Positions 9,002 through 15,618 of a stretch of 32,366 bases of DNA are shown piece after piece; position 1 is the first letter of the stretch; every line of letters begins with the position of its first letter. Made by a program: the position numbers and the translations under genes. The DNA is from an uncultured archaeon (lineage in GTDB: Archaea > Iainarchaeota > Iainarchaeia > Iainarchaeales > VGJJ01): assembly GCA_964356075.1 (NCBI GenBank), contig CAYHGC010000002.1, positions 1-32,366 on the forward strand, in the 5' to 3' direction. A model generated the notes under the pieces. It made no database searches, had not been told where the DNA came from, and saw only the letters and a list, made by a program, of their open reading frames with translations.

Positions 9002-11194
9002 ATGGGTCGAAAGGAAGACATGGCAAGTGCCGCACAGAAGCTGATGGGACAACAAGAAGACGTTCGAAACATCGGAATCGTTGCGCACATCGATCACGGT
9101 AAAACAACGCTCTCGGATAACCTCATTGCGGCCGCCGGACTCATCAACAAAGAACTCGCCGGAAAGCAACAGTTCATGGATTTTGAAGACCAGGAACAAG
9201 ATCGTGGAATTACGATTAACGCAGCCAACATTTCACTCGTCCCGACGATTTTAGGCAAACAATATTTGATCAACATGATTGACACCCCTGGACACGTCGA
9301 CTTTGGTGGAGAAGTTATCCGCGCCATGCGTGCGGTGGACGGAGTGGTATTGGTTGTGGATGCCGTTGAAGGTGTAATGCCTCAAACTGAAACGGTTATT
9401 CGCCAAGCCTTGCGCGAAAACGTTCGTCCTGTTTTATTCATCAACAAAGTGGATCGACTTATTAACGAATTACAGGTTGACGAATCCGAAATGCAAAAAC
9501 GATTTGTGAAAACAATCACACACGTCAATCAACTCATTCAGAAAAACGCCCCGGAAGGAAAAGATCAAACTTGGCAAGTGAACCCGGGTAATGGAACGGT
9601 TACATTTGGAAGCGCGTACAATCACTGGGCCGTTTCAACCACGTCCATGAAACGTACGGGAATCAATTTCAAACAAGTTTATGATTTAATGAAAGCAGAC
9701 AAGCAAAAAGAAATTGCCGAAAAGTCGCCGCTCGAAGACACCATGTTCGAAATGGTCGTGACGCATTTACCCAATCCGATTCAAGCACAAAAATACCGCT
9801 CTGCTGTGATTTGGTCGGGAGACAAAGAGTCCGAAGTCGGAATTTCCATGCTCGCGTGTGATCCCAAAGGACCGGTTGCCATGATGGTCACGGATGTGTC
9901 CGTTGATCCGCACGCCGGAGACATTGCCACGGGACGTGTGTATTCTGGAACGCTCCGCAAGGGAGTCAAAGTCAAATTAATTGGATTGCAGAAAGAAGCC
10001 ACGATTAACCGTGTGGGTGTTTACATGGGTCCGGAATTTGTAGAAGTCGAATCCATTCCGGCAGGATCTATTGGAGCCATTGTGGGATTACGCGAAGCGT
10101 TCGCCGGGCAGACGGTTTCCGAATTGGATATGCGCGAATTTGAATCATTCAAAACAAACGTTGAACCGGTTATCACGGTCTCGATTGAAGCCAAGCAGAC
10201 GAAAGATTTGCCTAAATTGATTGAAGTGATTCGCCAGTTAACCAAGGAAGATCCTAACTTGCGCGCGTCCATTAATCAAACCACGGGAGAACACTTGCTC
10301 TCTGGAATGGGAGAATTGCATTTGGAAATTAACCAATATCGTATTGAAAAAACCCACGGCGTGCCCATTACGGTTTCGCCGCCGATTGTGGTGTATCACG
10401 AAACCATCCAAATGGCCTCGCCGGAATTGGAAGGAAAGTCGCCGAACAAGCACAACAAATTGTTGATGATGGTCGAACCCATTGCGCCGGAAATTCAAGA
10501 AAAATTAATGGATGCGAAAGTGAAAGGAAAGGTCAAGCTCAAAGACAAAGAATGGATCGACAAGTTTCAACAAGCCGGAATTGGCATTGATGAATCCAAG
10601 AAAGTCTGGGCGATTGAAAACTATAATTTGCTCGTGGATGGAACGAAGGGAATTCAAGCCTTACACGAAATTCGCGAACTCGTTATTCAAGGATTCCAGG
10701 AAGCCATGCACGCAGGACCTTTAGCCAAAGAAGAAGTGCACGGAGTGAAAGTCACGTTATTGGATGCCAAGCTCCACGAGGATGCCATCCACCGCGGACC
10801 CTCGCAGATTATTCCCGTTATTTCGCGAACGATTTACGCCTGTATGCTTGCCGCGAAGGCCGTGTTGGAAGAGCCGAAGCAATTGCTTTCGATTACGACT
10901 CCGGAAGAATACATGGGAGCCGTCAGTAAAGAGTTGCAACAGCGACGCACGCAGATTACGGAAATCAAAAACGAAGGAGACGCGACCATCATTATTGGCC
11001 TCGCTCCCGTAAAGGAATTGATTGGATTTTCCCAAGCCATCCGCGGCGCGGCACAAGGACGTGTCATCTGGACGGCTGAATACCACGGATACGAGATACT
11101 CCCTCCTGAGTTGCAGAAGAAAACCGTTGAAGAAGTGCGGAAGCGAAAGGGAATGGATCCGGAAGTCAAGTACTATAGCTTCTTCTTAGAATAG
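9002..11194 (+). CDS. fusA: translation elongation factor 2 (aEF-2)
   Basis: 730 aa. G domain AHIDHGKTTLSD, DTPGHVDF, NKVDR. Diphthamide-loop HEDAIHRGPSQ. GAGGT lies 9 nt upstream. Confidence 0.98.
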   Translation: MGRKEDMASAAQKLMGQQEDVRNIGIVAHIDHGKTTLSDNLIAAAGLINKELAGKQQFMDFEDQEQDRGITINAANISLVPTILGKQYLINMIDTPGHVDFGGEVIRAMRAVDGVVLVVDAVEGVMPQTETVIRQALRENVRPVLFINKVDRLINELQVDESEMQKRFVKTITHVNQLIQKNAPEGKDQTWQVNPGNGTVTFGSAYNHWAVSTTSMKRTGINFKQVYDLMKADKQKEIAEKSPLEDTMFEMVVTHLPNPIQAQKYRSAVIWSGDKESEVGISMLACDPKGPVAMMVTDVSVDPHAGDIATGRVYSGTLRKGVKVKLIGLQKEATINRVGVYMGPEFVEVESIPAGSIGAIVGLREAFAGQTVSELDMREFESFKTNVEPVITVSIEAKQTKDLPKLIEVIRQLTKEDPNLRASINQTTGEHLLSGMGELHLEINQYRIEKTHGVPITVSPPIVVYHETIQMASPELEGKSPNKHNKLLMMVEPIAPEIQEKLMDAKVKGKVKLKDKEWIDKFQQAGIGIDESKKVWAIENYNLLVDGTKGIQALHEIRELVIQGFQEAMHAGPLAKEEVHGVKVTLLDAKLHEDAIHRGPSQIIPVISRTIYACMLAAKAVLEEPKQLLSITTPEEYMGAVSKELQQRRTQITEIKNEGDATIIIGLAPVKELIGFSQAIRGAAQGRVIWTAEYHGYEILPPELQKKTVEEVRKRKGMDPEVKYYSFFLE

Positions 11195-11222
11195 CCGTTT
11201 TCGTCCGTCTGCACCGAAGTTT

Positions 11223-11242
11223 GGGAGATCATTCGATCTCCC
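11223..11242 (+). terminator. Perfect 8-bp hairpin downstream of fusA
   Basis: GGGAGATC-ATTC-GATCTCCC lies 29 nt after the fusA stop. No adjacent T run, so terminator function is uncertain. Confidence 0.3.
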
Positions 11243-11287
11243 GGCCGAACTCTGCAGGCTTTTATTTCCCAACTCTTATGCATCGGC

Positions 11288-12158
11288 ATGGACATTCAAA
11301 CGGGAGTGTTATTCGCATTCGCCGCGATGATTTGCTGGGGTGTGGGAGATTTTCTTATTCAACGCACCGTGCGCAAAATAGGAATCGTGGAAGGACTGGC
11401 CGTCATTGGAATTGTTGGAACTGTTGGACTCCTCCCGTTTGTTTGGAATGATTTGCAAATTATTTTTCAGCCCGAAAACGCATCGTTGCTCCTTGGGCTT
11501 GGAGTTGTCACATTCATTGCGGCCATGTTTAATCTTTACGCCTACAAAATAGGCAAACTTTCCGTTGTCGAATTCGTTTTGGAAATCGAACTTCCTGTGA
11601 CGGTCATTTTGGGTATTGTTTTTTTTCCGCGAAATGCTTTCGATTGAACAACTGATCGTTGTCGGGATCGCGTTTGCGGGGATTGCACTCATTTCCCTCG
11701 AATCACTGTCGATTCGTAAGGAACACTTTCTGGAGAAAGGCGTTTTAGTCGCAGGAATGGCTGCACTGTTCATGGGAGTCTCTAGTTTTCTCACGGCTTC
11801 GGCCGCGCGAAGCATTTCTCCCCTGCTTTCCATTTGGGGGCCATGGACGGTATTCACCATTATCTCTCTTTTCTGGGTCTGTCATACTGGAAAACTACAC
11901 GTTTTTTTCAAAAATGTGAAAAAACACCAAAAATTAGTCCTTGCAACGGGAGTTATCGACACAGCGGCCTGGGTCTTTTTCGCCCTCGCAACGAGTACGC
12001 AACTGCTAGCGATCAGCATGGCCATTACGGAAAGCTATCCGGCCGTGGCTCTTCTTTTGGGGATTCATTTCAACCATGAGCAGATGAAAGGACATCAATT
12101 GATTGGCGGTGCGCTTGCCTTAGCTGCCAGTGTGGTATTAGGATTCTGGTTGGTTTAA
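11288..12158 (+). pseudogene. EamA/DMT-family transporter interrupted by a frameshift in a T8 run
   Basis: ORFs 11288-11647 and 11616-12158 together give a two-EamA-repeat, roughly 10-TM protein. The frames join inside one motif (ILGIVFF|REMLSIEQLIVVGIAFAGIALIS) at T8 (11619-11626). Removing one T restores a 290-aa ORF. TATA-like TTTTATTT (11260-11267) lies about 24 nt before the ATG. Confidence 0.8.
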
Positions 12159-12343
12159 TTTTTGGTTTCTTTTTCTTCCGATTTAATTTTTTTCAATAGC
12201 CCATTGTATCGCTCGTTCATTTGTTCCCATCCCTGCTTAACCCATTCTGTATCCGCACGATCTTGAGGGGTGTCTTTCCACGTCCCTCTCAGCGCGAGCA
12301 AACGTTTCACTTTTGCCTGAAAATTCTTTTTGTCCATATTCAT
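12155..12343 (-). CDS. small hypothetical protein (62 aa), Trp-motif, antitoxin-like by composition
   Basis: MNMDKKNFQAKVKRLLALRGTWKDTPQDRADTEWVKQGWEQ... It is divergent from the Bro-N/DinD-like gene. The motif RLLA-x15-EW.K..W[ED] is shared with the 65-aa ORF at 13304-13501. The alternative ATG at 12337 fits TATA spacing better. Confidence 0.5.
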   Translation of the reverse strand: MNMDKKNFQAKVKRLLALRGTWKDTPQDRADTEWVKQGWEQMNERYNGLLKKIKSEEKETKN

Positions 12344-12426
12344 TTAGTTGTTAAAACGTTTTAAGAAAAAAGGTGGGATACGATCGTTTGCCAACATAAC
12401 TCTTTGGCGGGATGGTATCTGTATCG

Positions 12427-12435
12427 TTAAATATA
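12427..12435 (+). promoter_or_regulatory. TATA box (TTAAATATA) for the Bro-N/DinD-like gene
   Basis: A consensus-like archaeal TATA centred about 40 nt upstream of ATG 12471. AAGGGGG lies between it and the ATG. Confidence 0.5.
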
Positions 12436-12470
12436 CCAAAAAGAGAGTAGTCCAAAAAGGGGGCTTTTGG

Positions 12471-13301
12471 ATGGACAAGGAAAACGCATTGGTTGTTTTT
12501 CAGGATAAGCAGATTCGTCGGGTTTGGCATAATGAAGAATGGTATTTTTCGGTAGTGGATGTGATAGGGGCGTTAAGCGATAGTCCGACTCCTAACCAAT
12601 ATTGGGGTAAAGTGAAGGACAGAGAATTTATCGAACTTCAGTTATCCCCAATTTGGGTACAACTGAAATTGCCCTCGTCCGATGGAAAATCTTACATGAC
12701 CGATTGTGCGAATACTAAAAATATGTTCCGTATAATCCAATCCATCCCTTCTCCCAAAGCGGAACCTTTCAAATTATGGTTGGCACAGCTCGGGCATGAA
12801 CGGATTGAGGAAATTCAAAATCCAGAATTGGCTCAAGACCGCGTTAAGCATTATTACGAACTCAAAGGATACCCCAAAGAATGGATCGATAAACGATTGC
12901 GGGGAATTGCCATCCGTCAGGATTTAACCGATGAATGGAAACAGCGCGATGTTTCCGAAGGGAAAGAGTTTGGTATTCTCACGGATGAAATTAGCAAAGC
13001 CACGTTTGGGAAAACCACGCGTGAATACAAGGAATTCAAACGTCTTCAGAATCCCAAACAAAATCTGCGCGATCATATGACGGATTGGGAACTGATTCTC
13101 ACGATGGTGGGAGAAAAAGCGACTACGGATATTACAACGGCGAAAGATTCGCGCGGATTGGAGGAATGCAAAGATTCTGCACAAGAAGGTGGAGAAATCG
13201 CGGGCAATACACGCAAAGCGCTTGAACAAAAAACAGGAAAAACGATTGTCTCAAAAACTAATTTTTTGCACTTGAAACCAAATTCAAAAAGGATTGAATA
13301 A
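12471..13301 (+). CDS. Bro-N domain / DNA-damage-inducible protein D (DinD)-like protein
   Basis: The N-terminus VVFQDKQIRRVWHNEEWYFSVVDVIGALSDS resembles a Bro-N domain. The C-terminal part (NLRDHMTDWELILTMVGEKATTDITTAKDSRG...GGEIAGNTRKALEQKTGK) resembles E. coli DinD (ILDHMGSTELAANLFRATQTEE...). ATG 12471 is preferred over the TTG at 12348 in the ORF track. Confidence 0.7.
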   Translation: MDKENALVVFQDKQIRRVWHNEEWYFSVVDVIGALSDSPTPNQYWGKVKDREFIELQLSPIWVQLKLPSSDGKSYMTDCANTKNMFRIIQSIPSPKAEPFKLWLAQLGHERIEEIQNPELAQDRVKHYYELKGYPKEWIDKRLRGIAIRQDLTDEWKQRDVSEGKEFGILTDEISKATFGKTTREYKEFKRLQNPKQNLRDHMTDWELILTMVGEKATTDITTAKDSRGLEECKDSAQEGGEIAGNTRKALEQKTGKTIVSKTNFLHLKPNSKRIE

Positions 13302-13303
13302 AA

Positions 13304-13501
13304 ATGAAACGGAAGAAATCCAAATCAGAAACTGAAGAAGAACGTGACTGGCGACTACTTGCGGAAGAATCTTTTTGCCATCTATATGAAAATGAGGACA
13401 AAGAGTGGGGTAAAGCATGGGATGAATTTGCTCAAAAAGAATTCAAGCTGAAATCTAAAACGAAAGATAGGAAACATAAAAAGAAGTTGAATATGGGCTA
13501 G
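13304..13501 (+). CDS. small hypothetical protein (65 aa), Trp-motif
   Basis: It starts 2 nt after the DinD-like stop, so it is operonic. EEERDWRLLAEESFCHLYENEDKEWGKAWDEF shares RLLA-x13-EW.K.W[ED] with the 62-aa ORF on the opposite strand. Confidence 0.5.
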   Translation: MKRKKSKSETEEERDWRLLAEESFCHLYENEDKEWGKAWDEFAQKEFKLKSKTKDRKHKKKLNMG

Positions 13502-13504
13502 TGT

Positions 13505-13543
13505 TTCCGCGTCGCGGGATGATTTGGACGCGGAACGTTTTTA
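13505..13543. terminator. Hairpin plus T run between convergent genes
   Basis: TTCCGCG (13505-13511) pairs with CGCGGAA (13529-13535). GTTTTT follows at 13537-13542. Confidence 0.35.
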
Positions 13544-13552
13544 CGGGTGAAA

Positions 13553-14095
13553 CTATTTTCTTCGTCGACTTTCGCGTCTAATGCGTTTGGAAATTGCGCG
13601 CATCTCTCGAGGAGTTTTTCCTCCCGTGCGTGTGGCGGGTCGATTGGGGCGTTCTCGATCTTCTCTATCGCGTTGTCTTCCTATTTTTTGGTGTGATCTT
13701 CGGCTTTTATCCACACGTCTCGCGGCCTTTCTATTTTCAGCTCTAAATGCTTCAATCTCCTCTGGGGAGGCGTATCCCTGAAGATAATAATCTGACCGAG
13801 GAGTTTCTACTCGTTCTCGGTCAAAAAATCCGCCGGGTCGACTTGAAACCCTCGGATGTTCTTTTCGGACCCTCTGTGATGTGTGTGCACGTTGTTGACC
13901 AACTTCAAACTCCGTTGGAACGTTGGGATGTAACCCTTTTCTTCCAAATAGAGCGCGGATTTCCTCTCTAATTTGTCGGGATCGCTTTCGCATTGCTCCC
14001 GCGGCTCGATTTTCGATGGCAAGCCGATGACCCATTCGATCATAGGCTTTTCCATTCCCTGCTGGTGACTGGCTGGCTGGTCTTCGTGTGCGCAT
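13553..14095 (-). CDS. hypothetical arginine-rich, very basic protein (orphan, 180 aa)
   Basis: 543-nt ORF. A TATA-like ATAAATA on the - strand (14117-14123) is centred 25 nt from ATG 14095, giving leaderless geometry. The R/K-rich tail ends ...RRESRRRK. I recognise no family. An alternative overlapping frame at 13807-14103 exists. Confidence 0.5.
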   Translation of the reverse strand: MRTRRPASQSPAGNGKAYDRMGHRLAIENRAAGAMRKRSRQIREEIRALFGRKGLHPNVPTEFEVGQQRAHTSQRVRKEHPRVSSRPGGFFDRERVETPRSDYYLQGYASPEEIEAFRAENRKAARRVDKSRRSHQKIGRQRDREDRERPNRPATRTGGKTPREMRAISKRIRRESRRRK

Positions 14096-14246
14096 TCCAG
14101 CAATATCGAAACTTAGTATTTATGCTTTGCCCAAATGAGCGAGAAAGGAGAGGCTTTCGTGTGTTCGCGCCCATCACCTATTTAAACGTTCCCCAGGGAC
14201 TTTTGCTTTATACCGCGCCGGAAAGGGTGGCGTTTTCCCTTTAGTG

Positions 14247-14295
14247 CGACCCTTAGATAAGGGTCGATCGAACGACGGGTTGTAAACAACCCGTC
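14247..14295 (+). promoter_or_regulatory. Twin perfect hairpins in the tuf 5' leader
   Basis: CGACCCTT-AGAT-AAGGGTCG (14247-14266, 8 bp) and GACGGGTTG-TAAA-CAACCCGTC (14274-14295, 9 bp). They lie 55-100 nt upstream of the tuf ATG. TATA-like CTTTATAC (14205-14212) is upstream of both. Confidence 0.45.
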
Positions 14296-14349
14296 AGTAC
14301 GAGTCGGTGCAGCAAAACACCCACAAGGAATGATTGGAGGAAAAACACT

Positions 14350-15618
14350 ATGGCCGAAAAGCCCCATATTAATTTGATTTTCATTGGTCACGTCGACCAC
14401 GGTAAGTCCACCTTAGTTGGACGCTTCCTGTACGACTCAGGAGCCTTAGCCGAAAACGACTACCGCAAAATTAAGGAAGAAGCCGAGTCCCGCGGAAAAG
14501 GATCGTTTGCCTTTGCGTACGTCATGGACAATTTGAAAGAAGAACGCGAACGCGGAGTAACCATCGACGTTTCCTACAAGAAATTTGCCGGAAAGAGCAA
14601 CAACTTCACTATTATTGATGCCCCCGGACACCGTGACTTTGTTAAGAACATGATCACCGGTACCTCGCAAGCCGATGCGGCCGTGTTGGTTATTTCCTGT
14701 AAAGACGGTCCCCAGATGCAGACCAAAGAACACGCCTTCCTTGCGAACGTGATGGGAATCAAACAATTAACCGTTGCCATCAACAAGATGGATGAAATGG
14801 AATACAAAGAAGAAGCCTACAACAAAGTCAAAGACGAAGCCACGAAGCTCGTCAAGATGGCTGGATTCAAGGATGAACAATTTACGGTCATCCCGGTTTC
14901 AGCATGGATGGGAGACAATGTCGCCAAGAAATCCGACAAGATGCCCTGGTATAAAGGACCCACCTTGCTCGAACGCTTGGATTCGTTGAAAGCCCCTTCA
15001 TTGCCCACCGACAAGCCCTTGCGCTTGCCCATTCAGGACGTCTACACCATCAAGGGTGTAGGAACCGTGCCTGTTGGACGCGTCGAAACGGGAATCATTA
15101 AGCCCAACGATAAAATTATCGTGATGCCCTCGAAGGCCACCGGTGATGTCAAATCATTGGAAGCCCACCACGAACAACTCACGCAAGCATTGCCCGGTGA
15201 CAACATCGGATTCAATGTGCGCGGACTGGAACGAAAAGATATCAACCGCGGAGACGTTATCGGACACCCCAATAACCCGCCCATGGTTGCCAAGGACTTC
15301 ACGGCCCAAATTGTCGTGCTAAACCATCCGACCGCAATCCCAGTTGGATACACGCCGGTCTTCCACATGCACACCTCGCAGATGAGCTGTACATTGGCAG
15401 AATTGCAGAAGCGATTGGATCCGAAGACGGGTCAGTCGGCCGAAGACAATCCTAAATTCTTGAAGACCGGAGACGCTGCGATTGTGAAAATCATTCCGCA
15501 GAAGCCGTTGGTTGTTGAGGAATTCAAATTGTTTCCGTCGTTGGGACGATTTGCTGTCCGAGATATGGGACAAACCGTTGCAGCTGGAGTGGTCTTGAAG
15601 GTCACTCCGCGCGACTAA
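14350..15618 (+). CDS. tuf: translation elongation factor 1-alpha (aEF-1A)
   Basis: 422 aa. [30 protein letters not shown] lies 9 nt upstream. Confidence 0.98.

Follow-up and report, generated by a model that had tools for sequence, protein, structure and literature searches.

Escherichia coli DinD is an SOS-induced protein that is said, in work by Uranga et al. from 2011, to inhibit RecA filaments. In type II toxin–antitoxin pairs of the VapBC kind, it is the C-terminal half of the antitoxin VapB that contacts the toxin. DdrC of Deinococcus radiodurans forms a homodimer; it binds single-strand or double-strand breaks in pairs, with compaction or circularisation of the DNA, and has been reported to lack homologues outside Deinococcus (PMC11347143). 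The PDC families are candidate phage defence systems, mostly unvalidated, that are enriched in DPANN archaea (PMC12988326). Here we analyse a locus that touches on each of these, in a 32,366-nucleotide stretch of an uncultured archaeon (contig CAYHGC010000002.1; the whole stretch is called the window). Between its genes for elongation factors EF-2 and EF-1alpha, a gene for a Bro-N/DinD-like protein of 276 aa is flanked by two small open reading frames (ORFs), s1 on the opposite strand and s2 downstream on the same strand. A preliminary description had taken the three for one mobile cassette. We propose that the locus is composite: a lone, horizontally acquired Bro-N/DinD-like gene sits amid a decayed vapBC pair and the resident gene s2, a reading to which we assign a probability of about three in four.

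The three ORFs have the positions, strands and sizes first given for them, with 127 nt of divergent spacer between s1 and the central gene and 2 nt between the central gene and s2. The central protein matches Pfam Bro-N (PF02498; E = 2.8e-11, 44.3 bits against a gathering cutoff of 25.6, residues 14–106), phrog_15286 (1e-95) and, over its full length, the PADLOC model PDLC04920 for PDC-S13 (E = 8.3e-116, 384 bits, residues 1–272 on positions 1–273 of 286). Therefore, the description of the protein as Bro-N plus DinD-like is right at the family level. Homologues are named 'DNA-damage-inducible protein D', 'BRO family protein' or 'phage antirepressor' in several sources. PDC-S13 is a single-gene 'phage defence candidate' with two models, PDLC04920 and PDLC04919, the former of which also matches the E. 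coli and D. radiodurans control genomes; by name, 'PDC-S13' was not found in the literature searched. The protein is a relative of E. coli DinD at the family level and, by the NCBIfam equivalog model, not its orthologue, and the gene is an accessory, single-gene PDC-S13 defence candidate of a catalogued kind.

The source genome (archaeal, ∼1.0 Mb, 113 contigs, 88% complete) contains three copies of the family, which is patchily distributed among relatives (23 of 61, with up to seven matches per genome). At least 8000 homologous clusters exist, and at least 597 homologous loci at 52–75% identity were found in archaea and bacteria. The range of 52–79% identity spans DPANN archaea, methanogens, bacteria of the Candidate Phyla Radiation, Bacteroidota and Proteobacteria, and the family has invariant charged motifs (SIPSPKAEPFKxWLA, NLRDHMTD.ELI and GE..TT.I). 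The closest homologues, at 75–79% identity, lie among unrelated housekeeping genes. A phylogeny of 90 family members places the window copy with foreign copies at a support of 0.85–0.96; it is 79% identical to P0004 and 70% and 55% identical to the paralogues of its own genome, with which it does not group. The window copy was therefore acquired horizontally.

We searched for partner genes at ∼99 homologous loci, among them the two other copies in the source genome, 11 in relatives, the three closest homologues, and 80 further loci from many archaeal and bacterial phyla. An all-against-all comparison of the ORFs within 400 bp of the 80 genes revealed no conserved flanking ORF, the largest shared flank being type I restriction-modification genes at three loci. 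No s1-like or s2-like ORF was found beside any of the ∼99 loci, the two paralogues included. The juxtaposition of the Bro-N gene with s2 occurs only in this population among 17 genus members and the ∼99 loci. The central gene probably acts alone.

Most of s1 corresponds to one half of an antitoxin. Residues 5–46 (12206–12331) align with residues 36–77 of the 78-aa VapB of congeners (tblastn of the G005 and G001 proteins against the window: E = 6.8e-12 and 8.5e-10), as in LLALRGTWKDTPQDRADTEWVKQGW of s1 versus LLALKGTWVSSAQDKEDEKWIKEGW of VapB, and s1 keeps the LALRGTW and W-x-K-x-G-W motifs of the VapB C-terminal half. In a whole-genome search with VapB, s1 was recovered with E = 2.5e-11 over VapB residues 35–77 only, and was the sole shortened copy among 23 family matches in 196 genomes. 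A hidden Markov model (HMM) built from ten full-length VapB homologues scores s1 at 32.6 bits (residues 3–46 on positions 34–77); the maximum among shuffled controls was 11.8 bits, with 0 of 2000 reaching the s1 score. The Pfam VAPB_antitox model itself stays below threshold on the fragment. VapB residues 1–35 and VapC have no match anywhere in 11000–14500, and no cognate VapC was found in the whole 88%-complete genome. At the same site in congeners, the proteins match Pfam VAPB_antitox (PF02697) and PIN (PF01850): G001, G005 and G007 carry vapC (PIN) and a vapB of 78–83 aa on the minus strand, preceded directly by the full gene for an EamA transporter in G001 and by an N-terminal EamA fragment in G005, while the G007 contig begins just upstream of vapC, with EamA outside it. 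The alignment, the HMM score and the missing toxin and N-terminal half thus identify s1 as a resident antitoxin remnant, the 3' leftover of a vapB gene that has lost its ribbon-helix-helix-type N-terminal half together with the PIN toxin.

The other small gene, s2, belongs to a family of 56–65 aa, with 52–57% identity, present in four other lineages. G005 and G007 each encode a 59-aa ORF that is 52–56% identical to s2 (E = 2.9e-18 and 5e-17) and is divergent from a full-length vapB across a spacer of 128–130 bp, with no Bro-N gene between. An exhaustive HMMER search added P0123, which is of the G007 type (order PIN-VapB-s2-ORF158), and P0125, which has the order EamA-s2-ORF138 and neither vapBC nor a Bro-N gene. 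At the DNA level the window resembles G005 from precisely the s2 ATG onward (13304–13351, 81%). Pairs of s2 homologues have nonsynonymous divergence (pN) of 0.20–0.33 and saturated synonymous divergence (pS) of 0.65–1.0, and the family therefore encodes a protein. By this comparison s2 is a real conserved gene, resident at the locus and never accompanied by the Bro-N gene in relatives. A word-index search of 5.8 billion proteins found s1 and s2 in the same population only; the homologues described here come only from congener synteny and the exhaustive HMMER search.

The end of s1 and the beginning of s2 are linked by an imperfect inverted repeat of 44 nt, in which 33 positions (75%) are complementary, a score that 0 of 1000 dinucleotide shuffles reach. 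Each arm is the best match of the other in the 1-Mb genome, the next best being 31 of 44. The repeat is possibly templated filler DNA at the junction of the vapC deletion. Inverted partial repeats had been claimed to flank the central gene; the pair of strings quoted for them does not stand, and a different repeat, the one described here, is real.

The claim that s1 and s2 are paralogous had relied on a shared pattern, RLLA-x13-15-EW-x-K-x1-2-W-[ED]. This pattern is literally present in both proteins, but their similarity does not rise above chance: BLASTP returns no alignment at E ≤ 100, and the Smith-Waterman score of 39 is equalled by 487 of 5000 shuffles (p ∼0.1). On the VapB-family HMM s2 scores −2.0 bits, against 32.6 for s1, and the motif residues are not kept in the s2 family, where the W of 'EW' is replaced by E or a gap. 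The nucleotide strings quoted as similar do occur in the two ORFs, but they are neither the best local alignment between them nor significant; the best alignment lies in a different, low-complexity stretch (codon-shuffle p ∼0.017). Of the two proteins called antitoxin-like, s1 is related to VapB and s2 is not VapB-like.

That s1, the Bro-N/DinD-like gene and s2 form a mobile toxin–antitoxin or defence cassette with the small proteins as paralogous partners would agree with the tight packing of the ORFs, with the literal shared motif and with the inverted repeat that brackets s1 and the central gene. We nevertheless regard this reading as contradicted and extremely unlikely, given that the small proteins share no significant similarity, that homologues of both are found at the locus in congeners without a Bro-N gene, that neither accompanies the ∼99 other Bro-N/DinD-like genes, and that the repeat has as its right arm no element end but the old s2 start. 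Of three outcomes that the preliminary description had itself named as speaking against the cassette, two are what we found: the small ORFs have no conserved linkage to Bro-N/DinD-like genes, and they do not resemble each other significantly.

The ancestral spacer between vapB and s2 has been kept between G005 (L023:4648-4776) and G007 (L051:1309-1436), with 95 of 129 positions identical. It contains a palindrome, TATATAGATTAA.TCTGTATATA, which adjoins the vapB start and is likely the VapB operator, and a hairpin, AAACCGCC...GGCGGTTT. The window spacer aligns with it weakly, at a score equalled by 17 of 500 shuffles for G007 and 278 of 500 for G005. A G-rich, ribosome-binding-like run precedes the Bro-N ATG at 12471. 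Across the genus, a box of 15 nt similar to GGCGGTTTGGTCTCC, with a TATA-like run after it, recurs 50–75 nt upstream of start codons: at −50 to −74 of other Bro-N genes (own genome C69:4364; L004–L007 and L011) and at −49/−50 of the s2 homologues (L023 ∼4727, L051 ∼1388). A RelE-like gene and a PIN-like gene of the source genome have the box upstream as well (C3:21970, C45:6115), and none lies in front of the closest foreign Bro-N homologues. The box may serve accessory genes as a promoter or operator element specific to the genus. We rejected its interpretation, together with the hairpin, as an integron attC-like site: the hairpin occurs only in the two ancestral-type spacers and not upstream of Bro-N genes, and the genome-wide count at ≤3 mismatches (29, with ∼25 expected by calculation) corresponds to chance.

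Taken together with the gene orders in G005 and G007, these observations allow a reconstruction. One older order, which these two congeners keep, is EamA (+), vapC (−), vapB (−), the divergent spacer of 128–130 bp, s2 (+), a basic ORF (−) and EF-1alpha (+). In the window lineage a single acquired Bro-N/DinD-like gene now separates vapB from s2, with its end 2 nt ahead of the s2 start. The vapBC pair has decayed, with loss of vapC and of the DNA-binding half of vapB, and s1 now combines the toxin-binding half of VapB with a new tail of 15 residues encoded by an inverted copy of the s2 start. Having lost its old upstream spacer, s2 is probably transcribed from the Bro-N promoter.

This probable read-through, the 2-nt gap on the same strand and the purifying selection on the s2 family could also be explained if the Bro-N/DinD-like gene and s2 formed a new functional two-gene operon, in which s2 modulates the DNA-binding protein. 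We find this very unlikely: the pairing is unique to this population among 17 genus members and the ∼99 homologous loci, s2 homologues work beside other genes, and the identity of the population contigs implies that there has been no time for co-evolution. As for s1, it is most likely a functionless relic. Its open frame and well-kept toxin-binding half would suit a working orphan antitoxin of the 'anti-addiction' kind, neutralising VapC proteins from mobile elements or elsewhere, but such a role is quite unlikely for the only shortened copy among 23 family matches in 196 genomes, in an 88%-complete genome where no cognate VapC was found, with a tail copied as filler DNA from the s2 start and with the operator-bearing spacer lost or strongly diverged. 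The population contigs are 99.9–100% identical among all those available, too alike to carry a signal of selection on s1. Contigs near-identical to the window come from Hainich groundwater metagenomes, and only DNA metagenome runs of the same study contain the window sequence.

The features of the locus are collected in Table 1.

Table 1. Features of the EF-2/EF-1alpha gap and its borders, in positions of the window.
Feature	Position	Strand	Remarks
EF-2 gene (fusA-type)	9002-11194		border of the gap
EamA/DMT transporter gene, resident	11288..12158	+	two ORFs, 11288-11647 and 11616-12158
Inverted repeat, left arm	12154..12197		encodes the non-VapB C-terminal tail of s1; place of vapC in congeners
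s1, chimeric ORF	12155..12343	-	62 aa; vapB remnant plus non-VapB tail
Divergent spacer	12344..12470		127 nt; sequence read directly
GGCGGGATGGTATCT box	12406-12420		at -65 of the Bro-N gene
TTAAATATA TATA-like box	12427-12435		in the spacer
Bro-N/DinD-like gene	12471..13301	+	276 aa; PADLOC PDC-S13 and phrog_15286 member
Inverted repeat, right arm	13293..13336		last Bro-N codons, stop, first 11 codons of s2
s2	13304..13501	+	65 aa, charged; 2 nt downstream of the Bro-N stop
ORF180	13553..14095	-	180 aa, very basic; convergent with s2; from the ORF list
EF-1alpha gene (tuf-type)	14350-15618		followed by S10

We compared the gap between EF-2 and EF-1alpha in the source genome and in the ten congeners in which both genes lie on one contig. 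Its length ranges from 218 bp in G014, where the genes are adjacent, to 5.9 kb in G005, and the contents differ; the gap is a hot spot of accessory DNA that is hypervariable in this genus of ∼1 Mb archaea. Across congeners the cargo comprises toxin–antitoxin genes, a nucleotidyltransferase, large secreted proteins and a defence candidate. The idea of an insertion between fusA and tuf thus holds for a single accessory gene in an insertion-prone gap, and fails for a three-gene cassette. Neither att sites nor an integrase were recognised at the hot spot, the window contains no tRNA genes or Rfam RNAs that could be integration targets, and searches of the gap by ORF list, family profiles and tRNA detection found no gene for an integrase or transposase, no further viral gene and no tRNA.

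These searches bear on the possibility that the Bro-N/DinD-like gene is selfish and spreads by itself, or that an integrated element left it behind as a viral or plasmid anti-repressor. Its family is patchy, multi-copy, very highly conserved and transferred between domains, the gene has inserted between conserved housekeeping genes, plasmids and a small number of phage contigs also hold members of the family, the viral fold matches include Bro-N, KilA-N and antirepressor proteins, and there is a weak match to PHROG Ant (0.0028). We consider this origin unlikely, however: besides the lack of mobility and viral genes in the gap, no nuclease-type domain was detected in the protein, only 4 of 50,697 phage records hold a homologue, and some homologues adjoin type I restriction-modification genes.

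The resident EamA gene upstream of s1 is read as two ORFs because of a 1-nt frame shift at a T-run (11611–11634), where congeners have one ORF of 288–289 aa. Pfam EamA matches both halves, and tblastn with the single-ORF proteins of G001 and G011 covers both pieces at 60–74% identity. The split recurs in an independent contig of the same population (L015), and reflects either decay into a pseudogene or an assembly error in the homopolymer. ORF180, which precedes EF-1alpha on the opposite strand, had no family matches in profile searches. In congeners the same slot just upstream of EF-1alpha holds, also on the opposite strand, a basic family of 129–206 aa with a conserved SPYKL[ST]GLG motif and without database annotation (L019, L023, L027, L051, L054, L056, L058 and L060). 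We rejected ORF180 as a member of this family, as the congener HMM gives it −4.2 bits, a score equalled by 278 of 1000 shuffles.

Other cargo was observed elsewhere in the genus. In G015, G012, G003 and G006 (L021, L022, L026, L057) the gap instead holds a Cys-rich secreted protein of 504–555 aa, and G005 and G002 carry very large secreted proteins of 735 to more than 1200 aa. A DUF2204-type nucleotidyltransferase gene occupies the position of the window's Bro-N gene in G001 (L027:1810-2618), G008 and G006 (L052, L057). It carries a small overlapping downstream ORF, and the two are possibly another toxin–antitoxin-like pair.

The function of the central protein was approached through its predicted structure. 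AlphaFold2 models reached a mean predicted local distance difference test score (pLDDT) of 65, and of 89.4 with a more diverse alignment of 49 sequences. In a Foldseek search of the PDB with the pLDDT-89 model, the only significant matches were six DdrC chains (E = 3e-6 to 1e-4; next best E = 0.29), with a probability of 1.00 over 222–257 columns and template modelling (TM) scores of only 0.30–0.49. DdrC was likewise the only significant PDB match of the pLDDT-65 model. According to these models the Bro-N domain and the C-terminal helical domain would together be DdrC-like, and the PDC-S13 family may share its whole two-domain architecture with DdrC, a tentative idea that we hold at somewhat below even odds. 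With a DdrC-like fold and DinD as a relative, our best guess is a broken-DNA-binding protein: it would recognise broken or unusual DNA, for instance viral DNA on entry or during replication, or damaged host DNA, and block its processing. Such binding would agree with its place among the candidate defence genes.

If the likeness is due to shared ancestry or a shared mechanism, DdrC would have branched off and diverged from a family that crosses domains, and DinD-like proteins, including the archaeal copy and E. coli DinD, would trap DNA nicks or ends. This would provide a testable mechanism for a candidate defence gene of which small-genome archaea carry several copies.

Several observations weigh against our interpretation of the locus and of its central gene. 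The sequence of insertion, loss of vapC, truncation of vapB and inverted duplication is a reconstruction. The spacer may have arrived with the gene, given that its box lies at −65 as in the paralogue on C69, or may be a diverged vapB-s2 spacer of the same length. The frame of s1 is intact from ATG to stop, so residual function is conceivable. No RNA runs containing the window stretch were found. On the side of the central protein, the NCBIfam DinD equivalog NF008573 scores 13.4 bits against a cutoff of 242, over residues 148–219 only; a cross-domain identity of 52–79% is unusually high for a defence gene; and we know of no experimental validation of PDC-S13. The likeness to DdrC appears to be one of fold only: searches with two family profiles and with each half of the protein gave no DdrC match at E ≤ 10, by which we rejected a link at the sequence level. 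With no sequence signal and TM-scores below 0.5, the DdrC link is so far a lead and not a proof.

For annotation, the locus is better filed as a lone PDC-S13 candidate beside a vapB remnant and an unrelated mini-gene than as a new three-gene system. It illustrates that an incoming gene can move into the place of a toxin–antitoxin pair in decay, perhaps taking over its promoter as well, and it marks the EF-2/EF-1alpha junction as a recurrent landing site for accessory genes in small-genome archaea. The central gene is a further member of an already catalogued candidate family, in a variable locus; its link to the DdrC fold is a lead worth following, as it suggests a testable binding of broken DNA for a very widespread and little-studied family.

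Compared with known systems, the small gene s1 shares homology with the VapB C-terminal half of the archaeal VapBC modules at the same site in congeners, but it lacks the PIN toxin, the VapB N-terminal half and the spacer that bears the operator, and is a remnant and not a module. The setting recalls accessory-gene hot spots between core genes, such as the defence hot spots of enterobacterial and Pseudomonas chromosomes, with which it shares conserved flanks and highly variable cargo; here, in contrast, the hot spot lies inside the archaeal EF-2/EF-1alpha (str-operon-like) cluster and has no recognised integrase or att. With phage Bro-N antirepressors (Ant and KilAC-containing proteins; baculovirus BRO) the central protein shares an N-terminal Bro-N domain, the weak PHROG Ant match and viral fold matches, whereas its C-terminus is helical and of the DinD type rather than KilAC/ANT, and there is no prophage context. 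DdrC (PDB 7UDI, 7QVB, 8U0G) has an N-terminal winged-helix-like domain and a C-terminal helical bundle that match nearly the whole length of the central model, and both DdrC and E. coli DinD are DNA-damage-response proteins; in the central protein, without detectable sequence similarity to DdrC and with TM below 0.5, dimerisation and nick binding are only predicted. From E. coli DinD/PcsA the window protein differs in being archaeal and below the DinD equivalog level, with anti-phage activity and DNA-damage induction only putative. It agrees with the PDC-S13/DinD-like family as a whole in its full-length match, its two-domain layout and its occurrence as a single gene without a conserved partner.

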